Of a stretch of DNA of 64,000 nucleotides, positions 26,714 through 63,987 are shown in pieces. Where the stretch lies: assembly GCA_934277615.1 (NCBI GenBank), contig CAKQUV010000001.1, forward strand, positions 121,035 to 185,034, in the 5' to 3' direction. The notes beneath the pieces are model-generated. The model was not told where the DNA came from. It saw only the letters and a list, made by a program, of their open reading frames with translations, and searched no databases. Position 1 is the stretch's first letter. Every line of letters starts with the position of its first letter. The translations under genes were made by a program, and so were the position numbers. The stretch comes from an uncultured Clostridia bacterium (GTDB lineage: Bacteria; Bacillota; Clostridia; Christensenellales; CAG-917).

Positions 26714-26940
26714 AATGTTCTCCTTAACTTCTCGTGCCCACGCCCACGTATGTAAGCGTGCGCACAATATATATAATATTACTTTTCTATCATATCATAA
26801 CAAAAATCATATTTCAATACGATTTTTACAATTTTTTCTCGACACAACAAGTTGTGGTCGCACATAACGCCGTGCGAATATGTGGCTTTTATTACACTTC
26901 ACTTGTTTGAAAACGTGCAAAAAGCGTCGTCCGCGAACTT

Positions 26941-44339: not shown

Positions 44340-44726
44340 ATCACACCCCCACAGGGGTGTGTTTGTTTTTCTTGCGGTAGTTGTGCGCCTTGCGCACGTG
44401 CTTCGCACTCGACCCCACTTCCGTGGCTGACGCTTCGCTATTCCGTCATTCCATTCCTTACGACTCCCGCCGGGAACACCAATCACACCCCCACAGGGGT
44501 GTGTTTGTTTTTCTTGCGGTAGTTGTGCGCCTTGCGCACGTGCTTCGCACTCGACCCCACTTCCGTGGCTGACGCTTCGCTATTCCGTCATTCCATTCCT
44601 TACGACTCCCGCCGGGAACACCAATCACACCCCCACAGGGGTGTGTTTGTTTTTCTTGCGGTAGTTGTGTGCTTTGCGCACATGCTTTACACCCGCCCCC
44701 TCTTCCGTGGCTGACGCTTCGCTATT
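44319..44726 (+). repeat. Tandem 142-bp repeats, each starting with the last 21 nt of tRNA-Arg plus its terminator
   Basis: cgactcccgccgggaacacca occurs at 44319, 44461 and 44603. Each is followed by the hairpin cacaccccc-aca-ggggtgtg plus a T-run. Units 1 and 2 are identical. Unit 3 is diverged and is cut off at ~44726 by the stop codon of the first island gene. Confidence 0.9.
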
Positions 44727-47172
44727 CAACCTCATCCAACATTTTTGTAAGCTCTTCTATACAGTTGTCATACTCGTTATTGTCTGGATCAATTCTTTTT
44801 AACCAACTATACATTAATATGCCTTTTTCAATAGGAATACGATGTCTGTCAACGTAAGACAAAATGCGCCAAGCTTCGGCTACATCTTTTATGTCGTCGA
44901 TCATTTCCAACGTTATGTGTGCTTTTCCGTCTTCGGTTGGTGCCATTGTGGCGTTTAAACATTTCTCAATGATGGGAATCATTACGTTTATTGCTCTCAA
45001 ATAATGCTCTCGAATATCGTATAATTCCTCTTCTGTCATTTCGAGATCGTTTGAGTTTTTAGATTCAGCTCTGTCCATCTGTTTTTCTAACAGTGTGGAC
45101 GCAATCGCCATATTCCCCTTGTATATACTTCTTCTACATTCGGGGAAATCGGCTTTAGACAGAACCTTGTTTAGTAAATCGATAGATTCTTTATAACACG
45201 ATAGTTCTTCCTCGATTTTTCCTTGTGCATGATTTAATTTTGCTATGTGACTATAACAATTCGCTTTATCGCTATAATCTTCCACAGCATCAGACTGTTT
45301 CAATACTTGCTCAATGTAGCCAATCGCCTCGGAAAACCATGCTTTGGCATCTTCAAACTCATTTAGCTTTGTGCACTCAATCCCTGCTCTGAAGCAAACA
45401 ACAAAAGCCACTCTATAATACGGCAGTTTTTGCTTGTCTATTAAAAAACGCTTAATCAACTCCATTGCCTTGTCATAGTAATCTAAGCTTGCTTCGCCAT
45501 TATAATCTGCGATGGCGCCGAGATTACTATACATTATTGCCATTACATATGCATTATCTTCTTTATTTCGCACAGACTCTCCGTGCGAATGATTTTGTAT
45601 TGAGAAAGCCGATTCTATATAGTCTTTAGCATATTCGAGATCTCCTGCCTTTAAAAACAGCGTCCCCAGATTATTATAAACTTCTGCCAAATAATCCCCT
45701 GCCGACTCAATATGATTTGAATAGCAGCGTTCCATTAAATCTTTTGCTTTTCTATAAGATTTTGCGGCAGCGGACATCTCGTTTTCAGTACTATAGCAAA
45801 ATGCCAATTTGTTATAACACAGGTTATAATAATAAAGAGTTTTTCCATTCAATTTACTTTCATCTATTAACGATAAAAGTTTTATCGCCTCTTCAAGTTT
45901 TTCTATCGCTTGATTCAATCTATAAATCTCTATCAACAAACTTGCACAATTGCAAATAGATCCGACATAATCCAAATACTCATCTTGATTATCCGGTGAG
46001 GCTTTATCTTTTTTTATTTCTATAATCGTGTTTTGGTATGCAATTGCTTTATCGTAATCAATAGAGACGCCATGCCCCCTATGATAAATGTCAACAAGCT
46101 TTTCTATTGCAGGTAAATAATTATATTCCGAACACTTTGTTAATATCGTTATCCCTTTTTCCGTATTAACCTCTACGTCTATACCGAATAAATACGCCAA
46201 TCCAATAAGGTATTTATGTTCAGGTAAAAAGTCGTTGTTTTTTACATTTAAATAAGACAAGGCGTCTATCAGTGAACTGTCGAAAACAGGTTTGTCGTGA
46301 ACGTTTACCAATTCGGGAATATCATCAAACGCATCAAACACCGATTGTTTATTCGTTTCCACCAACTCTACCGGGAATATGTATTTACCTCTCGCTTTTG
46401 CAATAGGATACTCTGTGGTAATAATATAATTGAGTTCATTGACTACGTTTGGAGTGATCACCACGGAAAAAACATCGCATTTGTCGATCTCCTGCTCTAT
46501 TTCATAATTAAAGTTTTCTCCGGGCGTTAAAAATTCGTCATACCAAACCCCGACATCTTCAAGTTTATCGTTTTCATGCATCAACTTTATGAATTCATTG
46601 GCGTATTTTCTGTCTTTTTTTCTATAACTAACAAACACATGCGCATCGAATTCTGATTTTATTTGTTCGATTGTTTCATCTTCCAATAAAACAGATTTTA
46701 AAAATCTTTCCAGCTTCTTGGAAAATGGAATTGAAGTATTGTCCAAGTCAAATCTGGACATGAATTGGACATTGCCAAAAATCTTATTATATGATTCTAA
46801 AATATCTGTCTCTTGTAAAATCGGTAAAATCGGGATACGTTTTTCTCTTATAAATACAAATTCTTTAGAATTTATCAAATTGCTATCACTTAAAAATCTA
46901 TTTGTAATCGGAATCACAATTAGTTGCATTTGTCCCAACGTCAATTCCAAATCATCCTCTATATATTCGCTCGAATCCGGCTTATACCAAATAGAACAAT
47001 TTGCAACATCCAGAATATCCCTGCATATTTCGTCAAAAAACAATTTATAGTCTTCAGAGTGAGCGAAAAAATAAACCCTAGCCTTCCCCGTTGGCAAACT
47101 ATCCCCTCGAGTTTTGCATAATAATTGCATAATACTTAGCCCCTTTATCGTTAAATTAGCATAACGATTCAA
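44722..47172 (-). CDS. Tandem TIR-like domains fused to Sel1/TPR repeats (816 aa)
   Basis: The first TIR-like module is RVYFFAHSEDY...CSIWYKPD...LIVIPIT. The second is canonical: HVFVSYRKKDRKYANEF...VGVWYDEFLTPGENF...DVFSVVITPNVVNE. Sel1-like repeats follow (IYHRGHGVSIDYDKAIAY), then a long TPR-like region. The gene is AT-rich. An alternative start is at 47130. Confidence 0.75.
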   Translation of the reverse strand: MNRYANLTIKGLSIMQLLCKTRGDSLPTGKARVYFFAHSEDYKLFFDEICRDILDVANCSIWYKPDSSEYIEDDLELTLGQMQLIVIPITNRFLSDSNLINSKEFVFIREKRIPILPILQETDILESYNKIFGNVQFMSRFDLDNTSIPFSKKLERFLKSVLLEDETIEQIKSEFDAHVFVSYRKKDRKYANEFIKLMHENDKLEDVGVWYDEFLTPGENFNYEIEQEIDKCDVFSVVITPNVVNELNYIITTEYPIAKARGKYIFPVELVETNKQSVFDAFDDIPELVNVHDKPVFDSSLIDALSYLNVKNNDFLPEHKYLIGLAYLFGIDVEVNTEKGITILTKCSEYNYLPAIEKLVDIYHRGHGVSIDYDKAIAYQNTIIEIKKDKASPDNQDEYLDYVGSICNCASLLIEIYRLNQAIEKLEEAIKLLSLIDESKLNGKTLYYYNLCYNKLAFCYSTENEMSAAAKSYRKAKDLMERCYSNHIESAGDYLAEVYNNLGTLFLKAGDLEYAKDYIESAFSIQNHSHGESVRNKEDNAYVMAIMYSNLGAIADYNGEASLDYYDKAMELIKRFLIDKQKLPYYRVAFVVCFRAGIECTKLNEFEDAKAWFSEAIGYIEQVLKQSDAVEDYSDKANCYSHIAKLNHAQGKIEEELSCYKESIDLLNKVLSKADFPECRRSIYKGNMAIASTLLEKQMDRAESKNSNDLEMTEEELYDIREHYLRAINVMIPIIEKCLNATMAPTEDGKAHITLEMIDDIKDVAEAWRILSYVDRHRIPIEKGILMYSWLKRIDPDNNEYDNCIEELTKMLDEVE

Positions 47173-48283: not shown

Positions 48284-50866
48284 TTATTTCTTCCAGAATA
48301 CGCGCGCGACGTTTACGATATCATAATCGTTGTACGTTTCGTCAAGCATAGAAAACGGCACCAGACAATCATGTTCGTTTCTGGCTTTTCCCGCTTTTTT
48401 TGGCGCTTTACGACGCTCTTCAAAATCATCTTCGCTTTCGCCCTCTTGTCTTGAAGGCATTTTTTGATTGAACGTCCAGCCACCGGCAATATACGACCTA
48501 TTCCACCTCTCGTGCTCGAGCTCTGCCAGCAACCGCACCTCGTCGTAAGTATAAGCGCTCGTACAATAGCACTCCCTCATCGCCGCCATAACTTTCATAA
48601 ACAAGGACGCGGACTTGTTCGATTCTCTTTCTGCGAGAGTAACCTCTTTCCATTCCGTTCTCAAACACTCTTTGTCCTCGTTTTGCACAGCCGTATTGAA
48701 ATCGCGCAACAAAGTGTAATACCCACCGTTTTTATCCGGGGTTTCTCTGTTGGGAAAATACTGTTTCATTTCCGGAACTTGATTTTCGAGCTGTTCTCTT
48801 CTGAGGAGCACGTATGCGTGATTGTACTTCATCTGCTCGTCCTCGTCGATGATTTGATTGTACGAGTAAATCTCATCCCTGTTTCCGAAAACGATCACTT
48901 TCAAATTGCCGTATCGTTTGGCGTCGTCATCGCTCCAGTTGATTCTGTCGCGGTTTTTCTTATTGAGGATATTGATTGCAATCGTTTGCAACTTTGCAGG
49001 TCTTGCCGCATTGCGCAGATTGTTGAGTTCGTGTTTGATATCCGCAAGCAAGGCGTTTGCCATCTTGATATTATCCTCGTCTTTCCCGAGGGCAACTATT
49101 ATAAGGTTATATTCCTGCGAGCGCGAATCTGCGCCCGTTCTCGAATCCAGATAATCCAGATAATCCGAGCTGAAACACGACGCATTGTGCATAACCACCA
49201 CAGGCAACTTCATTTGATTTTCGATGTCCTCGAGCGTCGCCGCGCGATCTTTTTTGAAATCCGAGGAAAGATTCATCGTTTTGCCGACTAAGCTATGATA
49301 CGTCGTATCGATTTTCTCTCTACGTTTGTTCCTGATTTGTTCTTCAATCTCGTTTTGACTAAGAACGCCCTTGTCGTCGACGCACACGATCAACGGATGT
49401 TGCAATTCAAAAATACCGCTCACAGAACCTGCGTCTTTATCGAATATGTCGGCTCTGAATTGCGTCGGCATGTGGTAATCGGGCTGTTTGTTGTCTATTT
49501 TAGTCGACATAACATAGGATTGCAACATAGTCCTTTGGCCCGTCGCGCCAAAGCCGACAACCATGACTTTGTACGTCGATTCGCCCGTATCCTGAATCAA
49601 CGAATTCGCGTCCCACTCATTGTTTCTTGCCTCCGCAAACAGTTTTGCGGTTATGTCGGACTCGTTGACAATATGCAAGGAAAACTCATTCTCATTGACG
49701 ACGCCGCGAGGATTGCGCACTTCGATTGCTCCGTTTTCAAGCACGGACGCCTTCTCGCGATTTTTACGGTGAATTCGCGGATTTGCGGATTCTAAGCCGC
49801 TATCTACGCACTTTTTCTTGTAATTGTCGTAATACGTGTAGTTTATATCTCTGTTTGTAAGTATGTAGTAATCGACAAAAACAGGTTTCTTGTTGCATTC
49901 CACGATTTCTCGCGCGACGTTCTCGATTTCGTTAAATACGATTTCCGTATTCACGGTTTCTTCGCCGCTGAAATCCTCGTCGTTATGCATTGCAAAAATA
50001 TGGATTCTGCTGCTTTTTGCCTTGGCTTTGACAACGATTTTTTTGCCTTTTCGTTTATCTTTTTCCTCATCGTTTTGCGGCGGTTTTGTTTCAAAAAACA
50101 CGTTGTCTACATATAGTCCGAGCCTCTTGAGCATGGAAGATTCCTTATCGCCGGTTTTCTTTGAGTAAGACCAGAATATATATCCGTTGGACATAATCTC
50201 TCTGTGCAGCGGATTTTTACGGTCGAAAGACCCGATATCGTCGCCTGCAAAAATCACTTTACTTCTTCTAGGTTTTTCGGGTTTTTGAGCGTCTTTACCT
50301 GCGCCTTTGTCCTCTCGATATGCCTTTAGTGCCTTTTTGTAATTTTCCTTATCTTTGAACCTCTTTTCGTTGATGCTGTTTGCCAAAAGCAACGAATCCT
50401 GCGTTACGGACGTAAACAAATATATATCGGTATTCGTATCCGTTTTCAACCTCAAACGCAGGAAGAACAGCAACACGCCGCTGTACATCTCATAGCTGAT
50501 TCTTGTAAGGATGATACTGAAGAACACAAGCCCCGCAAGCGCCGAACTTCCAGAATACAGCCATTGCACCAGCACTCCGCCCACTTCTCCGGGGGATGAC
50601 AAGCCCTCGAATTCGAGTCCGCCGATGCTCGAATAAATGGAATAAAAGACCGTTGCAAGTCCGTCATCGAACGCGTCCGGTCTGCCCGCCGCAAAAACGG
50701 CAAATTTAACGCCAAAACTAAACGCAAACACAATAGCTATAAAAAACAACTCAACCGCAAACTTTGCGCCGGAAAATCTTTTCCTTGCCGCAATGTATGC
50801 AAACATAATCAAACCATACGCCGTCAATAAAGCTACTGCCCCTATAACTGCTCCGAGTGCCGCCAT
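48284..50866 (-). CDS. TM + Rossmann-like + C-terminal RyR-domain protein (860 aa)
   Basis: About 4 N-terminal hydrophobic helices. The glycine-rich motif is VMVVGFGATGQ. The C-terminus is LAELEHERWNRSYIAGGWTF...EHDCLVPFSMLDETYNDYDI, which fits the bacterial RyR-domain pattern EH-x-RW...GW...H-x-x-LVP(F/Y). It is a full-length paralog of 53320..55803. Confidence 0.65.
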   Translation of the reverse strand: MAALGAVIGAVALLTAYGLIMFAYIAARKRFSGAKFAVELFFIAIVFAFSFGVKFAVFAAGRPDAFDDGLATVFYSIYSSIGGLEFEGLSSPGEVGGVLVQWLYSGSSALAGLVFFSIILTRISYEMYSGVLLFFLRLRLKTDTNTDIYLFTSVTQDSLLLANSINEKRFKDKENYKKALKAYREDKGAGKDAQKPEKPRRSKVIFAGDDIGSFDRKNPLHREIMSNGYIFWSYSKKTGDKESSMLKRLGLYVDNVFFETKPPQNDEEKDKRKGKKIVVKAKAKSSRIHIFAMHNDEDFSGEETVNTEIVFNEIENVAREIVECNKKPVFVDYYILTNRDINYTYYDNYKKKCVDSGLESANPRIHRKNREKASVLENGAIEVRNPRGVVNENEFSLHIVNESDITAKLFAEARNNEWDANSLIQDTGESTYKVMVVGFGATGQRTMLQSYVMSTKIDNKQPDYHMPTQFRADIFDKDAGSVSGIFELQHPLIVCVDDKGVLSQNEIEEQIRNKRREKIDTTYHSLVGKTMNLSSDFKKDRAATLEDIENQMKLPVVVMHNASCFSSDYLDYLDSRTGADSRSQEYNLIIVALGKDEDNIKMANALLADIKHELNNLRNAARPAKLQTIAINILNKKNRDRINWSDDDAKRYGNLKVIVFGNRDEIYSYNQIIDEDEQMKYNHAYVLLRREQLENQVPEMKQYFPNRETPDKNGGYYTLLRDFNTAVQNEDKECLRTEWKEVTLAERESNKSASLFMKVMAAMRECYCTSAYTYDEVRLLAELEHERWNRSYIAGGWTFNQKMPSRQEGESEDDFEERRKAPKKAGKARNEHDCLVPFSMLDETYNDYDIVNVARVFWKK

Positions 50867-50942: not shown

Positions 50943-51467
50943 TCATTCCAATATCTTGTCGATAAGCCCGTACCCCAATGCTTCTTTTGCGCTCATCCAC
51001 TTATCTCTTTCGCAATCCGCATGCAGCGTCTCGAGCGATTTGTCCATGTTATCCGCCATAATGGTTTCCAATTCGTTTCTGGATTTCGCCATATCTTCCG
51101 CAATACGTTGCATTGCGGTTTGAGGACGTGGCACTCCTTGCCTAAGCTGCATAAGCGGCTGATGAATAAGCATTCTGCTATGCGGCAAGGCATATCTTTT
51201 GCCCTTCTCTCCGCACGAAAGCAAGAATGCGCCCATGGACGCAGCCATGCCGTAGCATACGGTGGAAACGGGTGCTTTGATGAGCTTTATCGTATCGTAG
51301 ATTGCCAATCCGTAAACTATGCTGCCGCCGTTTGAATTGATATACAAACTTATCTCTTTGTTTTCGTCCTGTCTGTTGAGCTCGAGCAACTGCAAAATGA
51401 CTTTCATTGCGGAATCTTCATCCACCGTTCCGTTCAATAGCACTATACGAGGGTTATTGTTTTTCAT
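50943..51467 (-). CDS. ClpP-family serine protease, N-terminally truncated, catalytic triad intact
   Basis: It aligns by eye to E. coli ClpP from ~residue 30 onward, using my recalled E. coli sequence: YINSNGGS, GMAASMGAFLL (Ser), MLIHQP (His), CERDKWMSAKEALGYGLID (Asp). It lacks the axial-loop segment that contains DIYSRLL. Confidence 0.85.
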   Translation of the reverse strand: MKNNNPRIVLLNGTVDEDSAMKVILQLLELNRQDENKEISLYINSNGGSIVYGLAIYDTIKLIKAPVSTVCYGMAASMGAFLLSCGEKGKRYALPHSRMLIHQPLMQLRQGVPRPQTAMQRIAEDMAKSRNELETIMADNMDKSLETLHADCERDKWMSAKEALGYGLIDKILE

Positions 51468-51482
51468 ATCGTTCTCCTCCTT

Positions 51483-52031
51483 TCACTCGAGTATCTCGTC
51501 GACAATTCCGTATTCCAAAGCCTGTTGTGCGCTTAGGCTCACCCCGACTTCGCAATCTCGGTGTATTTTGTCAAAATCCGTATTCGTCTTTTGAGCAAGC
51601 ATATTCTCAAAAATCTCTCTTTCAAGCTTGACTTCTTTTGCCTCGATTGCAATCTCCGTCTCCTGATTGGCGCCGGATTGCAACATCCCGTACGGCTGCT
51701 CGAAAGAAATCTGACTATGTCTGAGCGCATATCTTTTTCCCTTGGCGCAACACGCAAGCAACAGCGCGCTATACCCGTCCGCCATGCCGACGCACGTCCC
51801 GGATATTGGCGCTTTTATGGTGTTCATCGTATCGATAATCGCCATCATATCCAAGTAACTTCCGCCGCTCGAGCCGATAAACAACTGAATATCTTCCTTC
51901 TCGCTTTTGGCATTGTAATCCATCATCTGAAAAATAATGCTCGCCGCCTTGTCCGAATTGACATATCCGCTCACGACGATAATACGGCTCTCCTCCAGCT
52001 CCTCACCAAGCGACCTAGCCTCTTTTGCCAT
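51483..52031 (-). CDS. ClpP-fold pseudoprotease (all three catalytic residues replaced)
   Basis: RBS aggagg plus M46 of the tracked ORF. In the same hand alignment to recalled E. coli ClpP, GMADGYSALLL puts Gly at the Ser position, ISFEQP puts Glu at the His position, and DCEVGVSLSA puts Gly at the Asp position. The stop lies 15 nt upstream of the active paralog. Confidence 0.75.
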   Translation of the reverse strand: MAKEARSLGEELEESRIIVVSGYVNSDKAASIIFQMMDYNAKSEKEDIQLFIGSSGGSYLDMMAIIDTMNTIKAPISGTCVGMADGYSALLLACCAKGKRYALRHSQISFEQPYGMLQSGANQETEIAIEAKEVKLEREIFENMLAQKTNTDFDKIHRDCEVGVSLSAQQALEYGIVDEILE

Positions 52032-52102: not shown

Positions 52103-53278
52103 TCAATTGTATACATATGGAAGAATTTCTTTTAGACTCTTCAATCTGCGGATAAAATGATGCCAAATTTTATCATTATAAAAATCTGTATTTTTAGGGT
52201 TGATACAAAGAGTTTCAACCATTGTTGTATAAATGAACTCATCATTAAACGAATTCCCTACATATAAAATGTCTTTTGGTGAAACATGTGTCGACTGAAT
52301 AATTTTGTTTACAAATCGCGCTTTCCCCTCAAAGTCATATGGCGTACCTATAATGCCATTTAACATTCCCTGATCATCAAAAGTAAATCGATTCGCTTTA
52401 ATCTCTGTAAAACAATCTACAAGTTCTTTCCCCAATACGCATTCCACATATTGTTTAATTGATCCAGATACATTGTATAATTTTATTCCCTTGGATTTTA
52501 ATTCCATTATCACTTCTCTGGCATCATCAACGAGTTGTGCTCTTTGAGCCACTTCTTTTATATGATGTTTGTTGCACCCCACTTTTATGAACATTTTTTC
52601 TGTTATTTCACACCATTCATCATGAGAAATTTCATTATTGCTGAATTGCTTGTGATATTTTTCGCATTCACTAACATCATAACCCAAGATAGTCCACATC
52701 AGTTCCCATGTATTAGAATCTACACGCGGTTTAGTAAGTGTTCCATCGAAATCAAATACCACTATCTTTTTATTAACATGTTGAGAAACCAATTCGCTAA
52801 ATATAAGTTCTATAACTTGGCTTTTATATTGAAACACATACGGAACCGGTGGCGAGCCAATAATTCTTTTCATTGCATCTTCTCCCCAAAGAGCAGATAC
52901 TATATCTTGGTTAACCATACCATTTGTTTCGTTTTCCCATGCAAAATCTGGAAAAATCACGGGAATAAACTTTACATTTTTATTTTTTAACACCTCATCC
53001 ATCTCAATCCTTGTAACCGAATTGAGATTTGGTGTGCCATTGACAATAAACCCCTCAAAAAAATTTTTTGTTAATAGCATAATGAAATTTTCTACATTAC
53101 CCAAATATTTTTGAGGATCTAGTAAAAAATTCCTCATTTCGCTCGCATAAATTTTTTCTGGAGAATAGTAAGTTGCACCTACTTCTTCACTTTTTTGACT
53201 CATCGCAACATAGATCTCATTTGCGATTTGAATTCCTGCAGATGAGCCTCCCCGATAGCAAATAAAATTTCTATACAT
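52103..53278 (-). CDS. TIR domain fused to HAD-superfamily (PSP-like) phosphatase
   Basis: N-terminus is MYRNFICYRGGSSAG...FIMLLTKNFFEG...RIEMDEVL (TIR-like). C-terminal HAD motifs are VVFDFDGTLTK (I), VSGS (II), K-x (III) and VGNSFNDE (IV). The gene is AT-rich. Confidence 0.75.
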   Translation of the reverse strand: MYRNFICYRGGSSAGIQIANEIYVAMSQKSEEVGATYYSPEKIYASEMRNFLLDPQKYLGNVENFIMLLTKNFFEGFIVNGTPNLNSVTRIEMDEVLKNKNVKFIPVIFPDFAWENETNGMVNQDIVSALWGEDAMKRIIGSPPVPYVFQYKSQVIELIFSELVSQHVNKKIVVFDFDGTLTKPRVDSNTWELMWTILGYDVSECEKYHKQFSNNEISHDEWCEITEKMFIKVGCNKHHIKEVAQRAQLVDDAREVIMELKSKGIKLYNVSGSIKQYVECVLGKELVDCFTEIKANRFTFDDQGMLNGIIGTPYDFEGKARFVNKIIQSTHVSPKDILYVGNSFNDEFIYTTMVETLCINPKNTDFYNDKIWHHFIRRLKSLKEILPYVYN

Positions 53279-53319
53279 TATCGTTTCCTCTTTGCCAATG
53301 GCGCACATGCTCTGTGCGC

Positions 53320-55803
53320 TTAAGCCTTTCTTTTGTGCGTTTTCTTCTTCTTGCCTGCGCTTTCGCCTTTATTCTCGGCGTTTTTAGCCTCTGCGTTTTG
53401 ATTTTCGGCGTTTTGGCTTTCTGCGCCTTTTTTCTCTGCTTCTATTTCCTTTTCGCTCTTCCTTTTCACGATCATGTACCCGTTTTGATTGAGTAACCAC
53501 ACCAAATCGTCCATAATCTGATAATCGTATTTGATAACGTCAGTCTTTTCTTCGCTGCAGTTATCTTTCTTAGCCATAATCTTGCGGAATTCCACAAGCC
53601 CCTCGAACGTGGTAACGTTTCCGTGCCGTCTGAGCGCGAGATTTTTGGAATCGCCATTCTCGATTTGCTCGATAGTTGACGGAATAACGCCGTTGGATAT
53701 CATATAAGCGTTCCATCTTTGATGTTCGAGGATGGCCATAGCCTGTCTTTTACTGCCATTCACAAAGTCTATGGTATATTTGACAGGGAGTTTGCCTTTG
53801 ATACCGTCTCTTTCCTTGCCGTAGACAATGGGATCGCCCTCTTCGTATTTCTTTTCATACTCGGCGCAAGTGTCTTTTTCGTCATTGGTTCTCGGTATAT
53901 AGTCATAGCCCAAAAGATTGAGCTTTTCTCTTATGCACATACACACGTACACGTTGTTATCTCGCTGTATCTGCGATTGCGCATACCAACTCTTAAGAGC
54001 GTCTCTCTTCACGTCCTCTTCGTATTCATACTTGGTATCGCCGACAAAAAGCCGTCCGTCCGTGGGCTTTTCCGCCTCGGAAGAGTTGATTGCCGCAACC
54101 ATCGCCGCCGCCTTTTCCTTGTCCGCCTCATACCATTTCTTTATGTAATCCAAAAGCGTCATTTTCCCGTCTTTGACGGCTTGTCTGTCTTTTGCGATGT
54201 CCACTTTCTTGTACTTCGCGTCCTCGAGTTGATACGTCATGTGTTTATCTCTTGCCATCATCTCCTGATTTTCATCCACGATTTGAGAGAGATTGTACAC
54301 AAGGTTCCTCTCTATGCCGAAAGTGATAAATTCTTCTTTTAGTTTTGCTTCTTTGAATGTCGTTATGGTGTCTTTGATACCGTTAGACAACTTGTCGCTT
54401 CTTATCTTCACAAACACTTTGGTCTTATCGTACAAGCCCCATTCTTTGAGTTTTGCGACGATTTTTTCTACCATATCAAGGTTTGCCATATCCGAGCCGA
54501 ACGCGATTATCACGTAATTGAACGCACCCTCAACGTCAATATCTCTCTTTACCGATTCATAAAATCCTGCATCGTTCACGTCGAGTTTTTGACGGAAAAC
54601 AATGTTTGCGGGCTTTGGAGGCAACGGCAAGTATTTGCTCTTATCTGCCCTATCGAGCACCTCGTTTTCATACCTGAAATATGTGTGATTGAGGTTTTTA
54701 TCGTTCTCTGCGTCGCGCTTGTCGTAAACGTAATAGTTCACGTCTTTTTGCACGAGTTTTCCGTCTTTTTTCGTCAAGAATTGATTGTTGGCAACAGACG
54801 TAAGGAACACTTGTTGGCTTGTTTTGCCAAAGCCGATCATCACCACGTTCATGTTCACGTCCGATCTTATCGTGGCGCTATCGTAGTCTATCTGCTCTTC
54901 CGTCATATACCTTGTAAGCGGATAATTGCTCACAAAATCTCTGGCAATCAACTTGTACTTGTTGATGTAATGCACGCATCCCTTAGTAAGTTCCACATAT
55001 TGCAGATACGACGTCATGTTTTCGGGCTCGCCGAACACGTAGACGTTGACGCCTCTTTTTTCGTCTATTACGAAATCCGACAATTTCATCTCTTCTATGG
55101 TTTTGCTCACCTGCTGCACGTATATGAGATTCTGAGATTCGTCCTCGGTGTTGATTATCACGTTGATTTGCTTTTTGGTGAAGTCCTTAAAAGTCTTTAT
55201 CAGCGTTTTGTCAAGGTCGTCGCCCTTCTCAAATTTGATATGAGCAACCTTTTGCGCATAGCAGAAGTCCAGTATCTCATCCGTGCTTTCCGAAAGCAGC
55301 ACCACGTCCGTTTTTTCGTCTGCGGACTTGATTATGTCAACGTTATGCTCGTTGTATCCGACTACCACAAAAACCTTTTTGCTTCCCTTCGTCATCTTGA
55401 CCTTTTCGGCAAAGTTGAACATTTTTCTGTGGAATATCGTAACGGCAAATAAGATTGCGTTGAGCGTTACGAGAACAAAGCAGATGTCCATCACCGCGCG
55501 ATAGAACACGTTGTCCGCCATAAGTGCGGACACCATACTGTAGTTATAGCTCAAGACGACCAGCTCGATAGTCGCTTTTACAGAGCGCAACAGCGACTCC
55601 CAAATCGACGCGCCCGAATAGGCGATGCCCATCCAATACATGGGTATTGCCACTATATAAATCAAAGCAAACTGACCTTTTTTAAATCCCTTCAAAAACT
55701 TCAGTTTTTCTTCTCTGTTCAACAAGAACAGCCTTACGATGACGCCGACGACGATTGCCAGCATACATACAAGACACAGTGCTATAACAACGTTCATAAA
55801 CAC
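53320..55803 (-). CDS. TM + Rossmann-like + C-terminal RyR-domain protein (827 aa), paralog of 48284..50866
   Basis: N-terminal TMs. VVMIGFGKTSQQ corresponds to VMVVGFGATGQR. FNYVIIAFGSDMANLDM corresponds to YNLIIVALGKDEDNIKM. The C-terminus is AILEHQRWNAYMISNG...HGNVTTFEGL...YDYQIMDDL, followed by a lysine/glutamate-rich tail. Confidence 0.65.
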   Translation of the reverse strand: MFMNVVIALCLVCMLAIVVGVIVRLFLLNREEKLKFLKGFKKGQFALIYIVAIPMYWMGIAYSGASIWESLLRSVKATIELVVLSYNYSMVSALMADNVFYRAVMDICFVLVTLNAILFAVTIFHRKMFNFAEKVKMTKGSKKVFVVVGYNEHNVDIIKSADEKTDVVLLSESTDEILDFCYAQKVAHIKFEKGDDLDKTLIKTFKDFTKKQINVIINTEDESQNLIYVQQVSKTIEEMKLSDFVIDEKRGVNVYVFGEPENMTSYLQYVELTKGCVHYINKYKLIARDFVSNYPLTRYMTEEQIDYDSATIRSDVNMNVVMIGFGKTSQQVFLTSVANNQFLTKKDGKLVQKDVNYYVYDKRDAENDKNLNHTYFRYENEVLDRADKSKYLPLPPKPANIVFRQKLDVNDAGFYESVKRDIDVEGAFNYVIIAFGSDMANLDMVEKIVAKLKEWGLYDKTKVFVKIRSDKLSNGIKDTITTFKEAKLKEEFITFGIERNLVYNLSQIVDENQEMMARDKHMTYQLEDAKYKKVDIAKDRQAVKDGKMTLLDYIKKWYEADKEKAAAMVAAINSSEAEKPTDGRLFVGDTKYEYEEDVKRDALKSWYAQSQIQRDNNVYVCMCIREKLNLLGYDYIPRTNDEKDTCAEYEKKYEEGDPIVYGKERDGIKGKLPVKYTIDFVNGSKRQAMAILEHQRWNAYMISNGVIPSTIEQIENGDSKNLALRRHGNVTTFEGLVEFRKIMAKKDNCSEEKTDVIKYDYQIMDDLVWLLNQNGYMIVKRKSEKEIEAEKKGAESQNAENQNAEAKNAENKGESAGKKKKTHKRKA

Positions 55804-55878: not shown

Positions 55879-58017
55879 TTACGCTCTTTTGACGCGTTTT
55901 TCATCGATTTCGATATCTCCCGAGCAATAATCGACGACTTCGCCCTTTTCGCCTTTATCGCCTTTACTGCCGCTCAAAGCAAAGAGTCCGCCGTCTCCTC
56001 CGGGACCTCCGTCGCCGCCGCTGCCTGCATAACCCTTTCTGAGCGTTATTTTCCCCGTGAAATCGTGAGCGCTCACTTTTTCGCAATCTATTGCGTATCC
56101 GGAATTGCCGCCTTTTCCTCCCGTTCCGCCTTTGCCGCCGCTTTGACCTATCGACCCGTTCGAGCCTTTTTCGCCCATACCGCCCGTTCCGCCGTTGCCG
56201 GCAGTGAGCGCAATACGCCCCTTGCCGGTAAATGTTACGTTCTTTCCGCTTATAGCCGCTTTGCCTGCCTCACCGTCTTTACCCGTCAGACCGGACTTTC
56301 CCGTTTCGCCCCATATATTATTTCGTCCGTACACTTTGATTTCGACGTTTTCCGAGCTCAAAACGAGTCCGCCGTGAGTTATATTCACGTCGCACAATAT
56401 AACCTTTTCCGCCGCCGTCTTAATCGTAAGCGAATACTGCTTATCGTAATCGGACTTTATCACCAACGTTTTGCAGTTCTCGCCCGTAACGATAGTCGTG
56501 CCGACGGAATCCGCAACGTTAGAAATATCCAACGCCACGATCTCCTCGTTCAGGTATTGTCTTGACTCCTCGAAAGAATATATGCGCACCGTTTCGTAAT
56601 TCAAAAGCGTTTCCGTTTTCGGCTTGCCCACGCCGCAGTATATTTCCATTCCTAAACAAGTCAGCATAATCACCATTGAAAGAGCGATTGTTCCTACCGT
56701 TTCGGCAACGTCGCCGCCTTTTCTCGATATTACGACAAAAATTATCGCGCATATCAACAACCCGGGTATAGCCAACGCCGGCGCTAACGCCATCGCTTCG
56801 CAGAACATCATTAAAAAGAGATATCCGCTTTTTTTATCGGAAATCCACGCCATTCCCGCCGTCGTCGCTATGGACGCAATAATACTTGCTCCCGTCGCAA
56901 CGCCCAAATAAATCTTTACACGGAAAGGATCGGCGTCTATCAAATAAGTGAATTCTGTAAAGCATAATATGTAATCGCTCTTCATGTATCCCAGCCACAT
57001 ACACGTAAGCCCCACCGCGCAAGAAAGGAAGGTCAGCAAAAGCGGCACTTTTTCTTCGTTGTACGTAACGCACAACAACGAGATAGCGGAAGTGGCAAAT
57101 ATTCCCACGTAACCGGCAATAGTAGGGCTTACCCCCAAAAATACAGTCGATGAGATAAAATAGAACGTGCTTATTTCAAGCTCTTTATCATCGGCGAGTT
57201 TCCAACATCTGATTATGACGTGAATCACGGAAACAAAACAACACGCGGACGAAACGTATAAAACGACCGGGGGAACCGCATCAAAAAACAAAGAGAGCGG
57301 TCTAATATATCCGTTTTTGAAATAAAAAATGTATTGATACAGTTGCCCTGCGATAAATGCGATTATCGGAACTATTACGGCAAAGACTTTGCAAACTATC
57401 TTATTGCGATACTCTTTAAGTCTTGCTCTCTCCTCTTCGCTCAACGTTTCGTCCGCTACGTCCGTCGTGATCGTCGTGGTCGGACGTGTCGGCGCTGTTG
57501 TACGTCTTGTCGTATCCGTCGTGCTTGTCGTCGTACTAGGACGTGTAGGAGTCGTCGGACGCGTCGGCGTAATCGGGCGCGTCGGAGCAGGTTCTTCCGA
57601 CGACGAAAATGCGTCCGTTTTGAACGCACTCTCATCAACGGTTTTTGCCGTAGGTTTTGCTTTCAACGCCCTGCAATTTCTAAACGCCTCGGGGCCGATA
57701 CTGTCAAGCGTACCCTCGCACACGACGTTTTCGAGATTGACGCAGTCTTTGAACGCTTGCATTAATATGCTCAGGACTTCGTCGTGCAAGACGACGGTTT
57801 TTATATTCTTGTTGCCCTCGAAAGCACGCTCTCCGATTACGTTGTATTCCGACGGCACGATGAGCGCGCCCGACACTATATCGAGCGCCAGAGCCTTCTC
57901 GCGCGTCAAAACAGACTTGCGGTTTTCCACCACAAATTTCTCCGTGCATCCGCACAGTTCGCAAGCGGTAAGCGAATCGTCGTTATCCGAATTACAATTT
58001 TTACAAACCCACGTCAT
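55879..58017 (-). CDS. Zinc-ribbon + BspA-type LRR + Pro/Thr linker + multi-TM + glycine-rich C-terminal domain protein (712 aa)
   Basis: The zinc ribbon is CKNCNSDNDDSLTACELCGC. The LRR_5-like region is IGERAFEGNKNIKTVVL...AFKDCVNLENV...EAFRNCRAL. The linker is PTRPITPTRPTTPTRP. About 9 hydrophobic helices follow. The C-terminus has G-rich runs (GGKGGTGGKGGNSG, GSGGDGGPGGDGG, GDKGEKGE). Confidence 0.65.
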   Translation of the reverse strand: MTWVCKNCNSDNDDSLTACELCGCTEKFVVENRKSVLTREKALALDIVSGALIVPSEYNVIGERAFEGNKNIKTVVLHDEVLSILMQAFKDCVNLENVVCEGTLDSIGPEAFRNCRALKAKPTAKTVDESAFKTDAFSSSEEPAPTRPITPTRPTTPTRPSTTTSTTDTTRRTTAPTRPTTTITTDVADETLSEEERARLKEYRNKIVCKVFAVIVPIIAFIAGQLYQYIFYFKNGYIRPLSLFFDAVPPVVLYVSSACCFVSVIHVIIRCWKLADDKELEISTFYFISSTVFLGVSPTIAGYVGIFATSAISLLCVTYNEEKVPLLLTFLSCAVGLTCMWLGYMKSDYILCFTEFTYLIDADPFRVKIYLGVATGASIIASIATTAGMAWISDKKSGYLFLMMFCEAMALAPALAIPGLLICAIIFVVISRKGGDVAETVGTIALSMVIMLTCLGMEIYCGVGKPKTETLLNYETVRIYSFEESRQYLNEEIVALDISNVADSVGTTIVTGENCKTLVIKSDYDKQYSLTIKTAAEKVILCDVNITHGGLVLSSENVEIKVYGRNNIWGETGKSGLTGKDGEAGKAAISGKNVTFTGKGRIALTAGNGGTGGMGEKGSNGSIGQSGGKGGTGGKGGNSGYAIDCEKVSAHDFTGKITLRKGYAGSGGDGGPGGDGGLFALSGSKGDKGEKGEVVDYCSGDIEIDEKRVKRA

Positions 58018-58037
58018 CTTCCCAAATCCACACTTTA

Positions 58038-58952
58038 TCAGTACAATTTATCGCATTCAACTGCAAGTTCTGAAATCGACTTTGCATTGCTGCCTCTGCC
58101 GACCGCTTTGAAAACCCATTCGCTGCCAACCCTTGTCGCAATCCCTACGACCAACGCCGTATTGCCGCCCATGTTTGCGTTTACCCTATATTCCACAAGC
58201 GGAGTGTGCGAAACGGGATCGTAAAGTTTTATGTACATATTCTTCACTTTGGACAAATTCTGCTTTCTTTTCACGCAGTCGTATATGTTGAGCACAAACA
58301 CGAGTTTATCTCTGTCCGTCGGCACTTTGTCCAAAAACACGTCTATGTTTTCATCGTCTACGTTTGGTCCTATATCGACGCCCGTAAGGTTGTCGCCGTG
58401 ATGCACCACGCATCCGCTCGGATGTTTCAATTTTCCGAAATACACGATGTCGAATCCTCTTTGCCCCATCACGAACACCGACGAATCGATATCCATATTC
58501 GCTCTTTCGGTTGCGCCGACGGGATCCCATCCCAATCCGACGACAATTCTCTTCAACGGCTTATTGTTGAATCTGATTTTAATCTCCTGCCCTTGCGACA
58601 ACCTGATTACGTCGCCGTCTTTATAGCCCGATACTCTCGTCGCGTCCGAATAGTCGATTTTCATATTCTTGCAATATATGCATTGAAAATCCGCGCCTCT
58701 GCCGCCCTGGCATTCTCTTGCCTTGCAGGCGCAGCCTCCGACAACGCGACTGCGGCACTTGTCGCACGGCAAAAGCGTTGAATTTGTCTCGAACTTTGCC
58801 TGCCTTATTTCGGAGGTCATAACTTTCGCCTCGTCGGCGGATATTTCCAAAAAGTTTACGACCTTCCACTCGCCGCCGAATTGTTTGATTTCCAAACCGA
58901 AATGCTTTCCCGTAAGCGAACATTGCGCTTTCAAAAACTTCGTGTTTTCCAT
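58038..58952 (-). CDS. Cys-rich zinc-ribbon N-terminus fused to a TerD-family domain
   Basis: The Cys cluster is CDKCRSRVVGGCACKARECQ...CIYC. The TerD core is VGLGWDP...MDIDSSVFVM...VVHHGDNLTG...DDENIDVFLDKVP...LVFVLNIY. Confidence 0.75.
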   Translation of the reverse strand: MENTKFLKAQCSLTGKHFGLEIKQFGGEWKVVNFLEISADEAKVMTSEIRQAKFETNSTLLPCDKCRSRVVGGCACKARECQGGRGADFQCIYCKNMKIDYSDATRVSGYKDGDVIRLSQGQEIKIRFNNKPLKRIVVGLGWDPVGATERANMDIDSSVFVMGQRGFDIVYFGKLKHPSGCVVHHGDNLTGVDIGPNVDDENIDVFLDKVPTDRDKLVFVLNIYDCVKRKQNLSKVKNMYIKLYDPVSHTPLVEYRVNANMGGNTALVVGIATRVGSEWVFKAVGRGSNAKSISELAVECDKLY

Positions 58953-58954
58953 TT

Positions 58955-60004
58955 TTAGACCTCCAAATATTTTTTATCTATCCCCTCGGACAACAGCAAC
59001 GCTTTTCTTTGCCGTATCTGCGCTTGCACAAGAAGTCGCAAAGGCGTTCTCCCCGAGCAAACCCAGGTCGCGCGTTTTGTCCACGTCCTGTTGTATGCCA
59101 TTTCTTTATCAGTGCAACCGAAATACTTGTCTATCGTCTTGTCCGCCGACGTTGCGTCCCACGTTACGTCAACGTGAAAATACTCTTTATTGTCAAACGA
59201 AACGACGTTCCAGGCGTGCGTACACAACTGACCTTTAACTTGTCCGTGCACGACGTAGCACGTAATTCCCTGCGTATCCAGCAATCTTTTGTACGCCTCC
59301 GCAAAGCCTTGGCACACGCACTTTTTATTGACAAGCGCGCCGTATGCGCTTTGTTTGTACCCTTTATCCACGGGATTAAGTTTCTTCCCTCCCGTGTACC
59401 AGTATTCCACCGTCTTGGCAAGATAGTTGTGCGCGACGTACGCTTTTATCTCGGGCGTCATGCTTTTTGAAAAGATTGCGCTTGCGACCTCTTTCAGTTT
59501 GTCGTTCAATTCTCTTTTAAGCATATCCGAGAGCACTTTGCCGATTCTGTATTCAAATTTGAAAACGGCAAATTTGATTTTGTAAGTTTTCCAGGTATAC
59601 GGCTGATACGACACGATTTGCAGATTTGAATAAAACGCCTTATTCGCGACAAAGTCCGAATACAACGCTTTATAATCCAAATCAACCCCGGGTTTTGGAA
59701 AAACAACCAATCGTTTTTGAAATTGTTCCACGGCGTTTATCATAGCGTCCTCGGCTTGATATCCGTCGCTAACGTTCACGATATCCTGCCTTTTGACTTC
59801 CGTGTTTGTGTATTTAAAATCAAAAACGACTTTCCCTTCAACCACTTTCGTTTTCTGTTCGGCAATATAAACGCCTATCCCGGGATCTTTCGCTACCGCC
59901 TGCGCTATGACGGCGGCAGGGGACGTTCCTCCCTCATATTCGATGTGGAGTTGAAAGTCGTATATCCCGTCTATAAATGCGTCTATATTGTTTACCGTGA
60001 TCAT
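58955..60004 (-). CDS. Transglutaminase-like cysteine protease-fold protein
   Basis: The start was moved to M62 (MITVNN) at 60004, 2 nt after the kinase stop. The Cys-His-Asp core is KKCVCQGFAEAYKRLL...CTHAWNVVSF...YFHVDVTWD. Confidence 0.75.
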   Translation of the reverse strand: MITVNNIDAFIDGIYDFQLHIEYEGGTSPAAVIAQAVAKDPGIGVYIAEQKTKVVEGKVVFDFKYTNTEVKRQDIVNVSDGYQAEDAMINAVEQFQKRLVVFPKPGVDLDYKALYSDFVANKAFYSNLQIVSYQPYTWKTYKIKFAVFKFEYRIGKVLSDMLKRELNDKLKEVASAIFSKSMTPEIKAYVAHNYLAKTVEYWYTGGKKLNPVDKGYKQSAYGALVNKKCVCQGFAEAYKRLLDTQGITCYVVHGQVKGQLCTHAWNVVSFDNKEYFHVDVTWDATSADKTIDKYFGCTDKEMAYNRTWTKRATWVCSGRTPLRLLVQAQIRQRKALLLSEGIDKKYLEV

Positions 60005-60006
60005 TT

Positions 60007-63209: not shown

Positions 63210-63225
63210 CCCTTTTCCCCCTAGG

Positions 63226-63263
63226 AAAAACAAACGGATTGCCCCAAGGGGAGCAATCCGTTT
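63226..63263 (-). terminator. Intrinsic terminator-like hairpin between the vWA and PP2C genes
   Basis: The minus strand reads caaacggattgctccccttggggcaatccgtttgttttt, with an ~11-bp stem and a T-run. It ends ~15 nt before the PP2C RBS. Confidence 0.5.
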
Positions 63264-63336
63264 GCGTCAACAGGCACAAAGCCTTTTTGTAACAATTCTT
63301 TGCTCCGTAAGTTATCTCGGACAAATAAATGTCGCA

Positions 63337-63987
63337 TTAAATTGAGTTTACCAACATGTGTATGCAAGTGGCGATATCCGTGTCGCTACAACCGTCGCCT
63401 GCTTTGGACGCCGAATGGAACGTGTTTTTCCAGTCCACCAAATCGGACCACGGCTCGGTGTCGGGCGCGAATATGAGCAATCTCTTTGCTTTCTCCTCCA
63501 TCTCTTGACCTTCCCACCATTCGTGCAATTCCGCAAGGTCTGCCGGCATATCGCCCGGATAGCTGGATGACGATTTTCTCGCGCCGAGCGCAAGTGCCGG
63601 AGCGTCTGTCCACATGATGATGACGTGGCGTCTTTTGGAGCCCGATCTCACCCAATCGGATTTCATCGCCAAAGCAATTGCTTCAAGCGAGTTTTCGGGA
63701 CCGTCGCCGCCGCCCGTCGCCTCTATTCCGTTGACGAAATTGTGGAAGTCCGTGCTTTCGTCGTCGAGCACGAAGAACTTGGACTCCACCATAGGCTCCG
63801 TGTCGCAGCCGTAATCTCTGAACGCAATCACCTTGATACGCAATTGTTGTACGGATTTATCTTTTGCTTCCATCTCCTGGACAAATTTGCGATAGAAAGA
63901 AAGCGCGTTTGCTTTTACGTCGTTGATGATTGACGACATGCTTCCCGTTGCGTCGATACACATAACGATATCTACATTGTAATCCAA
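63337..63987 (-). CDS. von Willebrand factor A (vWA) domain protein, TerY-like
   Basis: MIDAS-type motifs are VMCIDATGSMS, GGGDGPE and IIMWTDA. Length is 216 aa, and the start lies 13 nt from the window end. Confidence 0.8.
   Translation of the reverse strand: MDYNVDIVMCIDATGSMSSIINDVKANALSFYRKFVQEMEAKDKSVQQLRIKVIAFRDYGCDTEPMVESKFFVLDDESTDFHNFVNGIEATGGGDGPENSLEAIALAMKSDWVRSGSKRRHVIIMWTDAPALALGARKSSSSYPGDMPADLAELHEWWEGQEMEEKAKRLLIFAPDTEPWSDLVDWKNTFHSASKAGDGCSDTDIATCIHMLVNSI

Follow-up and report, generated by a model that had tools for sequence, protein, structure and literature searches.

A hairpin-less ClpP/pseudo-ClpP pair as the candidate core of a separate gene module in gut Clostridia

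Introduction

What is the role of two adjacent genes for ClpP-family proteins, one with an intact catalytic triad and one without, when both proteins lack the N-terminal segment that normally gates the ClpP pore? The question is raised by a 64,000-nucleotide stretch of DNA, here called the window, from an uncultured Clostridia bacterium of the Christensenellales (contig CAKQUV010000001.1, positions 121,035 to 185,034). In the accepted view a ClpP core is gated by its own N-termini, and only Clp AAA+ unfoldases drive it. The N-terminal hairpin and helix A gate the pore, contact the unfoldase, and are needed for functional coupling to ClpX or ClpA; N-terminal deletions of ClpP, or acyldepsipeptides (ADEP), open the pore, and unfolded proteins are then degraded without an ATPase. 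Fully dead subunits, named ClpR, are known from cyanobacteria, plastids and apicoplasts.

A sequence-only reading of the window, made without database searches, had pointed to the pair and placed it in a "TIR/RyR island". The analysis described here favors, at a probability of roughly 45%, the view that the pair is the dedicated gate-less ClpP/pseudo-ClpP core of a separate conserved module with non-Clp partners, probably related to biological conflict. The evidence is taken up in steps: the catalytic residues, the truncation, the conservation of the pair, its relation to known families, and its gene partners.

One active and one dead subunit

Both proteins belong to the ClpP peptidase family (MEROPS S14 / Pfam PF00574) by their CLP_protease domain match. 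The 174-aa protein matches the Pfam profile with E=1.2e-59 over positions 16-180 of 182, and the 182-aa protein with E=6.3e-42 over positions 9-180. The genes are separated by a gap of 15 nucleotides. In HMMER alignments to B. subtilis ClpP (3tt6/3tt7) the 174-aa protein keeps the GMAASMG, IHQP and ERD motifs and an intact triad, Ser77/His102/Asp155. This active, ClpP-like subunit shares 50-55% identity with canonical ClpP; behind its QPL motif 4-5 residues are inserted. At the Ser, His and Asp positions the 182-aa protein has Gly86, Glu111 and Gly163, and it lacks the triad altogether; it is called the dead, or ClpR-like, subunit below. The claim of the sequence-only reading that an intact and a triad-less ClpP homolog lie side by side, which came from a hand alignment, is thus borne out by Pfam and by the HMMER alignments, none of which restored a catalytic residue to the second protein.

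Truncation of both N-termini

A short N-terminus can result from a misplaced start codon. The ClpP-like gene has a strong ribosome-binding site, AAGGAGGAG, followed by ATG at 51467, and a stop codon immediately 5' of the start leaves no extension possible. The ClpR-like gene has a strong Shine-Dalgarno sequence, AGGAGGAAGG, followed by ATG at 52031; the one longer version of its open reading frame (ORF) starts at a TTG inside the preceding gene and adds 45 residues without resemblance to ClpP. The resulting 227-aa product was rejected: it overlaps the preceding gene, and the added segment, besides not being ClpP-like, is missing from most sampled homologs, which are mostly ~177-184 aa long. 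Because of the ribosome-binding sites, the upstream stop codon and the homolog lengths, the start sites of both genes are considered fixed. The N-terminal truncation of both subunits is real, as had been claimed, and no longer start restores either N-terminus.

The extent of the truncation differs between the two. An E. coli ClpP sequence, in which S97, H122 and D171 fall at the correct numbering, served as the reference. In this mature numbering the active subunit has only ~6 residues ahead of Arg27, the last of them a Pro. Its AlphaFold2 (AF2) model, with a predicted local distance difference test score (pLDDT) of 94.7, opens directly with strand 1 (the first element is the strand at residues 8-12), and Foldseek aligned the model to solved ClpP structures with a template-modeling score of 0.93 and a root-mean-square deviation of ~1.1 Å. 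Since ~6 residues precede Arg27 and the model starts at strand 1, the active subunit is without the axial hairpin and without helix A. The dead subunit has ~15 residues ahead of Arg27; by alignment, a helix-A-like segment is kept and only the hairpin is missing. Of the features that mark a housekeeping ClpP at this end, the axial hairpin (mature residues ~1-17) is thus absent from both subunits and helix A from the active one. The earlier statement that both proteins start at about residue 30 holds as to the truncation and is refined in its detail.

Conservation and phylogeny of the pair

With the dead subunit as query, a search of 5.8 billion proteins yielded ~20 clusters of ~180 aa at 50-99% identity, beyond which only generic ClpP appeared, at ~40%. 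A profile search of 1.84 billion representatives also gave ~20 clusters at 50% identity, 176-184 aa in length with one of 197 aa. The short-form family of the active subunit has at least 120 clusters of 170-188 aa. Homologous pairs, for which the sequence-only reading had proposed to look in other islands, were found in number: all 25 distinct loci have the two genes directly adjacent on one strand, the dead gene being the upstream one. The host genomes belong to Christensenellaceae and other Clostridia, with some metagenome-assembled genomes of Bacilli; all are from gut samples, among them human (Hadza included) and ruminant ones. Most of these related loci (numbered L001 onward) were found through the Clp pair itself, and the neighbor frequencies given below are therefore conditional on the pair, except in one set that was seeded with a partner gene.

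Ser and His are missing in every sampled member of the dead clade, and the Asp position is kept in a few. Near-invariant motifs run through the clade over 36-66% identity, namely QPYG, NQQTEIAIEA in the handle, and HxDCExG, which argues that the dead subunit is under purifying selection as a pseudo-enzyme. Like ClpR, the sampled members are conserved triad-less paralogs paired with an active ClpP. Pairwise distances of the ClpR-like and ClpP-like proteins across loci correlate with r=0.84, and those of the ClpR-like protein correlate also with two partner families described below, F1 (r=0.91) and F2 (r=0.94). The correlations fit co-inheritance of the pair with F1 and F2, with shared phylogeny as a confounder.

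Simple neighbor-joining trees on Kimura distances were made from sets of 95 and 126 sequences with 200 bootstraps. Each subunit forms its own monophyletic clade, the dead one in 190-195 and the active one in 188-196 of the 200 bootstraps. The two clades likely have a common origin. Compared with canonical ClpP they have in common a 3-residue insertion after residue 125, the truncation, and the derived residues H116, R146, E150, H165, C168 and P86. Twenty other ClpP-like proteins with atypical triads (a few still with Ser-His or His-Asp) from the library of 1.8 billion proteins, among which no labeled ClpR was included, sit nearer canonical ClpP than the dead clade. On this comparison, from which labeled ClpR is absent, triad loss in the dead clade was probably independent and not by descent from classical ClpR. 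The likening of the pair to ClpP/ClpR in the sequence-only reading is apt as a description; as to ancestry, the dead subunits form a separate clade, apart from the other triad-less ClpP-like proteins.

Relation to housekeeping, phage and plasmid proteins

Neither subunit is recognized as a housekeeping ClpP. The NCBIfam equivalog model TIGR00493 scores 189.4 bits with the active and 137.8 bits with the dead subunit, below its cut-off of 308.6, and the ClpP subfamily model NF001368 scores 208.7 and 151.9 bits, below its cut-off of 249. No specific family for the truncated ClpP/pseudo-ClpP pair was found in NCBIfam or Pfam. In the searchable literature, including work on conflict systems from the Aravind laboratory, no such pair was found, nor its linkage to RyR, VirD4-like or Sel1-IGF proteins. 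No AAA+ Pfam domain occurs in any gene of the island, in agreement with the earlier claim that no Clp-type ATPase is encoded there, and an E. coli ClpX sequence gave no match in the whole window (E>1).

The model for phage ClpP-related head-maturation proteases, NF045542, scores 79.6 (active) and 34.4 (dead) bits against a cut-off of 120; the cellular ClpP models thus score far above the phage model, contrary to a grouping with prophage proteases that the sequence-only reading had named as a possible refutation. The best viral relatives in PHROGs are phrog_94, "head maturation protease" (2e-35 and 2.4e-10). The window is chromosomal Clostridial DNA, with genes for LeuRS, GluRS, IMPDH, GDH and GerA; among the scanned ORFs (the island genes and 12 others) there was no Pfam match to capsid, portal or terminase, and the dead-subunit family is not present in the IMG/VR viral contigs. 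A prophage head protease was rejected on the low phage-model scores, the housekeeping flanks and this absence. A plasmid origin was also rejected: in the PLSDB plasmids the dead-subunit family was not found, and nothing beyond generic or canonical ClpP at ≤41% identity was returned. Neither a prophage head protease, nor a plasmid gene, nor a duplicate in decay describes the pair. A known defense system was likewise tried as its identity and rejected, as PADLOC gives nothing for the core genes; the PADLOC matches elsewhere were a weak ThsB/TIR match for a TIR-TPR protein, mad8 (1.4e-7) for the ATPase F3 described below, and generic kinases.

Partner genes

For a survey of partners the ORFs of 21 loci were clustered, and reference proteins were mapped by tblastn. 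The families that recur beside the pair in the window, together with the rest of the island, are listed in Table 1.

Table 1. Genes of the island around the ClpR-like/ClpP-like pair, in the direction of transcription
Feature	Position in window	Strand	Basis
Upstream context (VWA, PP2C-like, Ser/Thr kinase, transglutaminase-like, TerD, BspA-type LRR)	55879..63987	(-)	Pfam
F11, 827-aa membrane protein	53320..55803	(-)	Family clustering, HMM, BLASTP
401-aa HAD protein, HAD-IB phosphatase C-terminal half	52103..53308	(-)	HAD Pfam and NCBIfam
ClpR-like pseudo-protease subunit, 182 aa	51483..52031	(-)	Pfam CLP_protease, alignment, ribosome-binding site and ATG
ClpP-like active subunit, truncated N-terminus, 174 aa	50943..51467	(-)	Pfam CLP_protease, PDB alignments, AF2 model
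F1, 860-aa membrane protein, C-terminal RyR domain	48284..50866	(-)	Transmembrane prediction, RyR Pfam, AF2
F5 (F5/F10 family), 362 aa	47174..48262	(-)	Reciprocal HMM searches, BLASTP
TIR-TPR protein, 816 aa, downstream array end	44722..47172	(-)	Pfam TIR_2 E=9.3e-12, TPR_12 E=1.5e-13

F1 is the commonest downstream neighbor. In 14 of the 25 loci a full-length homolog with 24-36% identity is the next gene after the pair, and the Pfam RyR domain was matched in all 18 family members (best E=4.5e-6). Two to three N-terminal transmembrane helices, three in the 860-aa window protein, are predicted around an invariant Gly-rich loop, GIGGLxFEG. The AF2 model (pLDDT 75.8, predicted template-modeling score 0.76) has Rossmann-like alpha/beta domains after the transmembrane region, and comparison with the PDB gave no significant fold match. 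At residues ~60-125 a short helix (66-80) and the invariant loop (consensus IYSGIGGLTFEGL, low pLDDT) lie between predicted transmembrane helices and are followed by the Rossmann-like domains, a layout that recalls P-loop cation channels with their outer helix, pore helix, filter, inner helix and RCK domain. No Pfam channel domain was matched, only TrkA_N faintly, and a P-loop ion channel is a speculation by analogy.

In the F5/F10 family an acidic linker connects two winged-helix-like domains at the N-terminus to a small conserved domain at the C-terminus. F5, F10 and singletons were joined as one family by reciprocal hidden Markov model (HMM) searches (E 1e-7 to 1e-19); the window protein F5 and its homolog in L011 are similar in BLASTP (E=2e-14). 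A profile search against the PDB gave a weak MarR-like match (~1e-3), and Pfam HTH_45 is faint. The family follows F1 in every locus where the contig continues.

F11 has three transmembrane helices and an RyR-like EHQRWN motif. It is a distant paralog of F1: an F11 HMM matches an F1 member with E=2.8e-8, and BLASTP similarity is weak. Members of the family were identified in the window, L015 and L016; in L015, L016 and L009 the next gene downstream of F11 is the ClpR-like gene. The Bacilli-type locus L018 is without F1; there, a 96-aa RyR-domain protein (3185-3475, minus strand), which matches the F1 HMM with E=3e-8, and an 836-aa protein with multiple transmembrane segments (674-3184) lie just upstream of F2-F3-ClpR-ClpP, and the RyR function may be supplied in trans.

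An ATPase and an IGF-tailed protein in related loci

In 14 of the 25 loci the pair is accompanied by two further genes, F2 and F3, and F3 always adjoins the gene for the 302-aa F2. F3 is a VirD4/TraG-like ATPase (Pfam T4SS-DNA_transf 4e-30; 210 bits with the NCBIfam CD1115 family, below its cut-off of 250). Its Walker A and B motifs are invariant, and it has no transmembrane segment. The order F3-F2 followed by ClpR-ClpP-F1-F10 is found in L013, L024, L025, L027, L031 and L036. The module occupies a slot between lon-engB and ruvCAB-queA-tgt, with both flanks seen in L013 and L027. One flank is seen in L025 (lon-engB; the contig ends in F1), L024 (ruv side; the contig ends at F3), L031 and L036 (ruv side). 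In L016 it lies between rtcB and dnaG-rpoD. At these sites, therefore, the F3 ATPase does not belong to a conjugative element, and a group of species has inherited the module stably.

The F3 tails (L011, L013, L016, L018, L024, L025, L027, L031, L036) are often short and acidic, some with a terminal aromatic residue: …NDDDF, …GDDFDF, …KKDDDY and …DDDDDDNFFFGRSRRR. The F-plasmid protein TraD binds TraM through an acidic Phe-terminated tail. By analogy, the winged-helix protein could be the partner of the acidic F3 tail.

The center of F2 is formed by a Sel1 repeat (profile match against PDB 6ork, E=6.6e-9). Its best-conserved stretch is the C-terminal tail, W-K-x-(I/V/L)-T-N-(S/A)-(S/A)-x-x-P-(S/A/T/N)-(K/R)-x-(I/L)-G-F. 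All 15 distinct sequences end in KKIGF[RKN], EIGF, PLGFN or KKLGFNVKGGK; IGF is followed by one residue in 11 and is the exact end in one, LGFN ends one, and LGF is followed by seven residues in two. Among the other proteins of these loci, [IL]GF occurs within the last 12 residues in 2 of 275 (0.7%). After allowing for the ~ten neighbor families that were inspected, the chance probability of such a tail is ~0.06, and the invariance of the motif over 37-61% identity adds weight to the docking lead. The tripeptide (I/L/V)G(F/L) is that by which the loops of ClpX, ClpA and ClpC enter the hydrophobic pockets between ClpP subunits. In both subunits the pocket positions 48, 62, 90, 92, 112, 114 and 189 are hydrophobic or aromatic in most sequences, with exceptions at 90, 92 and 112, chiefly in L018 and L042. 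Docking of F2 on the Clp barrel through its IGF tail is plausible from these sequences. No IGF-type tail was found among the window proteins; the V/IGFG motifs inside F1 and F11 resemble the GxGxxG loop of a Rossmann fold.

A scan of JGI metagenomes was seeded with F2 and is unbiased with respect to Clp. F3 adjoins F2 in all six loci found, and the Clp pair is present in four of the five with enough flank. In L038 (427-14010) the order is a 1941-aa protein with BspA/Listeria-Bacteroides repeats, F2 (EIGF end), F3, a 289-aa protein, VWA, kinase and PP2C-like. The 289-aa protein gives a weak match to anthrax-lethal-factor (ATLF)-like metallopeptidases (E=1.5e-5, below cut-off), and the sequence hints that a different putative protease stands at the position of the Clp pair and that the protease module may be exchangeable. 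The VWA-kinase-PP2C triad of L038 hints at a further tie of the system to TerY-P-like triads.

The island and its exchangeable cargo

The island consists of 13 co-directional genes on the minus strand, from 63987 to 44722. The six genes of the upstream context come first, in the order given in Table 1. They are followed by F11, the HAD gene, the ClpR-like and ClpP-like genes, F1, F5 and the TIR-TPR gene. The upstream order is kept in L001-L006 and largely in L022. VWA (2.7e-11), Pkinase (2.3e-25) and PP2C_2 (weak, 1.6e-3, below cut-off) form a putative TerY-P-like triad in Pfam searches; the PADLOC TerY model did not match the triad of the window, where only generic kinase matches were obtained.

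The GC content of the HAD gene is 0.333 and that of the TIR-TPR gene 0.352, as compared with 0.44-0.51 in the other eleven island genes. In L009, otherwise 98-100% identical, the HAD gene is absent (2250-2420) and F11 directly precedes ClpR. In L022 (92%-related) a different TIR-TPR protein, a 35%-identical paralog, lies at the place of the F11 and HAD genes. The TIR-TPR protein has a weak ThsB-like match in PADLOC, and its gene has an internal deletion in L005 and is either replaced or moved in L022. The HAD gene was probably inserted later, between F11 and the Clp pair, and does not belong to the core; the low-GC TIR genes probably arrived by later insertion, and the region beside the pair looks like a hotspot for cassette exchange. 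Because of the low GC content, the absence of the HAD gene from L009 and the swap in L022, the TIR genes are taken as exchangeable cargo at this hotspot and not as constant partners. The "TIR/RyR island" of the sequence-only reading holds for the TIR domain of the 816-aa TPR protein and the RyR domain of F1. The TIR domain that it placed in the 401-aa HAD protein was not confirmed, as the N-terminal 176 aa have no Pfam match even at E≤10. As part of the system the TIR setting failed, the genes being low in GC and one of them absent from the near-identical L009, and the label fits only the neighborhood.

Several further features were observed. A strong terminator-like hairpin with a 16-bp stem (63265-63230) splits the VWA gene from the rest of the array. 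Two identical 20-nt GC-rich hairpins (CACACCCCCACAGGGGTGTG) lie 3' of the TIR-TPR stop, at 44484-44503 and 44626-44645, 142 nt apart. Each scores as a terminator on both strands; as a pair they may terminate transcription in both directions, or they may be a small repeat that marks the island border. Large proteins with BspA-type leucine-rich repeats (LRR_5) are found near the Clp pair or F2-F3 in five otherwise different loci: the window (55879-58017), L011 (815-3550), L018 (12110-16147), L028 and L038 (427-6252). Outside the island, three ORFs are without a Pfam match at E≤1e-5: 22168-24081 (-), 24083-26767 (-) and 36089-37753 (+), of 637, 894 and 554 aa.

Proposed function

The two genes would encode two subunits of one ClpP-family peptidase, one catalytic and the other a structural pseudo-protease. 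Together they may form a gate-less hetero-oligomeric R/P barrel that is controlled by docking partners instead of by its own N-termini. Because both subunits lack the hairpins that gate the pore and serve the binding of ClpX, ClpA and ClpC, the particle would not be the housekeeping Clp core; it would do the proteolytic work of a separate, conserved gene module. In the window this module would comprise F11, the ClpR-like and ClpP-like proteins, F1 and F5, to which the VirD4/TraG-like ATPase and the Sel1-IGF protein are added in about half of the related loci. Where the latter is present, its tail could plug into the partly retained hydrophobic pockets and couple the barrel to a ring of the VirD4-like ATPase, much as the IGF loops of ClpX do. 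In the window variant the barrel may act by itself, its substrates being unfolded or tethered, or by way of the membrane or winged-helix proteins encoded with it. The likely substrates would be the co-encoded winged-helix or membrane proteins, or proteins of an invader. The TerY-P-like triad, TerD, the TIR cassettes and the variable cargo around a constant core suggest a role in conflict or defense. The anatomy of the genes, the lost triad, the truncations, the conservation, the linkage of the genes and the IGF tail are observed; hetero-oligomer formation, the lack of gating, IGF docking, the substrates and the biological role we infer from them.

Several results weigh against this picture. 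F2 and F3 are not present in the window locus, and the docking idea cannot directly explain that locus. The residues of the pocket do not set loci with F2 apart from loci that lack it, and the pocket positions 49 and 82 are now polar. In L038 the IGF-tailed F2 and F3 are kept, with no Clp pair inside 7 kb. PADLOC-DB v2 gave no match for the Clp pair, F1, F5, F11, the HAD protein, F2 or other proteins of the related loci. A chromosomal site that stays the same from species to species agrees with a stable function in the cell no less well than with defense. Finally, a sister relationship of the two subunits was found in 175 of 200 bootstraps with the 95-sequence set and in only 85 of 200 with the 126-sequence set.

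The alternative that survives best is a lineage-specific housekeeping protease of Christensenellales-type Clostridia, which would process the RyR membrane protein or serve its quality control (e.g., the regulated turnover of a channel-like protein) and play no part in conflict, the TIR and Ter genes of the window being unrelated. It would account for the use of the same lon-engB/ruvCAB site in several species-level genomes, for the high mirror-tree correlation with F1 (r=0.91), for TIR genes that are low-GC insertions, one of them absent in L009, and for the lack of both a PADLOC match and any representation in plasmid and viral collections. However, the pair is also found with quite different neighbors, and without F1, in L018, L020/L034, L028-L030, L032 and L035; the upstream hotspot swaps TIR and other cargo between the window, L009 and L022; TerY-P-like triads stand next to components of the system twice independently, in the window and in L038; and a VirD4-like ATPase would be odd in membrane-protein quality control. 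This explanation is doubtful, though a serious one.

The preferred reading of a separate module has a bolder form, in which the system represents a new class of energy-dependent protease: a soluble ATPase of the VirD4/TraG type (FtsK-HerA superfamily) in place of an AAA+ unfoldase, a Sel1 adaptor with an IGF tail, and a gate-less ClpP/pseudo-ClpP barrel. The window would then have an ATPase-less derivative wired to RyR membrane proteins within a Ter/TIR defense island. Coupling proteins recognize conjugative relaxases and other transferred proteins, and, if the proposal were true, a VirD4-type/ClpP machine might seize the proteins of an incoming plasmid or phage and degrade them. In this full form the proposal is unlikely.

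A little less likely again is an autonomous, gate-less toxic effector of abortive infection that degrades unfolded or nascent proteins without an ATPase and is restrained by the dead subunit or by neighbors. A constitutively open protease would be costly at a fixed site in many species, no identifiable sensor or inhibitor is linked in the simplest loci, and the active-looking ATPase and IGF-tailed protein in half of the loci point to partner dependence. What speaks for such an effector is that the truncations are real and conserved, that no unfoldase gene was detected in the window by island Pfam searches or the ClpX query, that the neighborhood is defense-like, and that ClpP opened by ADEP or by N-terminal deletion behaves in this manner.

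Ordinary extra isoforms of the ClpP1/ClpP2 type, working with or alongside the housekeeping ClpP and served by the ClpX or ClpC of the host, are improbable. Hetero-tetradecamers of paralogous ClpPs are well known, and the active subunit keeps the triad and most pocket residues along with its 50-55% identity to canonical ClpP; against this stand the hairpin missing in both subunits and helix A in one, the scores of both proteins under the NCBIfam ClpP cut-offs (TIGR00493, NF001368), and, in the loci examined, a consistent linkage to non-Clp genes and never to clpX. Prophage head-maturation proteases or decaying duplicates can be dismissed as very improbable, since the phrog_94 label of the best viral relatives and the similar lack of an axial segment in phage ClpP-like proteases are outweighed by NF045542 scores of 79.6/34.4 bits versus 209/152 bits to the cellular ClpP models, by housekeeping flanks without a phage structural-gene match among the scanned ORFs, by the absence of the dead family from IMG/VR, and, as regards decay, by intact ORFs conserved over 25 loci.

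Should the couplings of the favored module hold, the set of machines able to feed or control a ClpP chamber would be wider than the Clp unfoldases. A conserved family of gut Firmicutes has given up the gate, made a dead subunit permanent, and is accompanied by non-Clp partners, the RyR membrane, winged-helix, VirD4-like and Sel1-IGF proteins. It would also add a protease-based module to the catalog of conflict systems of abundant uncultured Clostridia in the human gut.

Comparison with known systems

The genes that open the window array (VWA, PP2C-like, kinase, transglutaminase-like and TerD) recall those of TerY-P/Ter clusters, and a similar triad follows F2-F3 in L038. Differences are that PADLOC finds only generic kinases and that a terminator-like hairpin parts the VWA gene from the rest; we know of no described TerY-P system with ClpP homologs.

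The phage prohead proteases (NF045542, phrog_94) have the ClpP fold and a short N-terminus in common with the window pair, which scores well below the NF045542 cut-off, has no phage context and is not found in viral contig collections.

Among activators, the (I/L/V)G(F/L) loops of ClpX, ClpA and ClpC contain the tripeptide found at or near the C-terminus of F2 in the related loci, and the C-terminal location of (I/L)GF in F2 is like that of the HbYX and GQYL tails of the proteasome activators PAN, Mpa and Bpa/PafE. Unlike the ring activators, F2 is not AAA+ and is not encoded in the window, and its docking is a candidate only.

In ClpP1/ClpP2 of Mycobacterium, Listeria, Chlamydia, Pseudomonas and Streptomyces two co-evolving paralogs are likewise combined, into a particle that is only expected for the window pair. 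Those subunits have complete or nearly complete triads and full N-termini and are served by ClpX or ClpC1 through LGF/IGF loops, whereas in the window pair one subunit is dead and both are truncated.

The pairing of an active paralog with a conserved triad-less one, structural or regulatory in role, is found in cyanobacterial and plastid ClpP3/ClpR and in apicoplast ClpR. Shared with the window pair are also an insertion near the start of the handle region and the adjacency of the two genes, as of clpP3 and clpR in Synechococcus. ClpP3/ClpR, however, has full N-termini and ClpC as its partner; the window pair comes from a Firmicute, lacks the hairpin in both subunits and helix A in the active one, and has no linked ClpC or ClpX.

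The nearest functional analog is ClpP that has been N-terminally deleted or activated by ADEP, in which the gate is gone because the axial loops are lost or displaced. These are laboratory mutants or drug-bound forms of housekeeping ClpP, whereas the family described here is natural and conserved and has its own dead partner. If its proposed couplings hold, it would be a natural model for gate-less ClpP, of relevance to ADEP-type activators.

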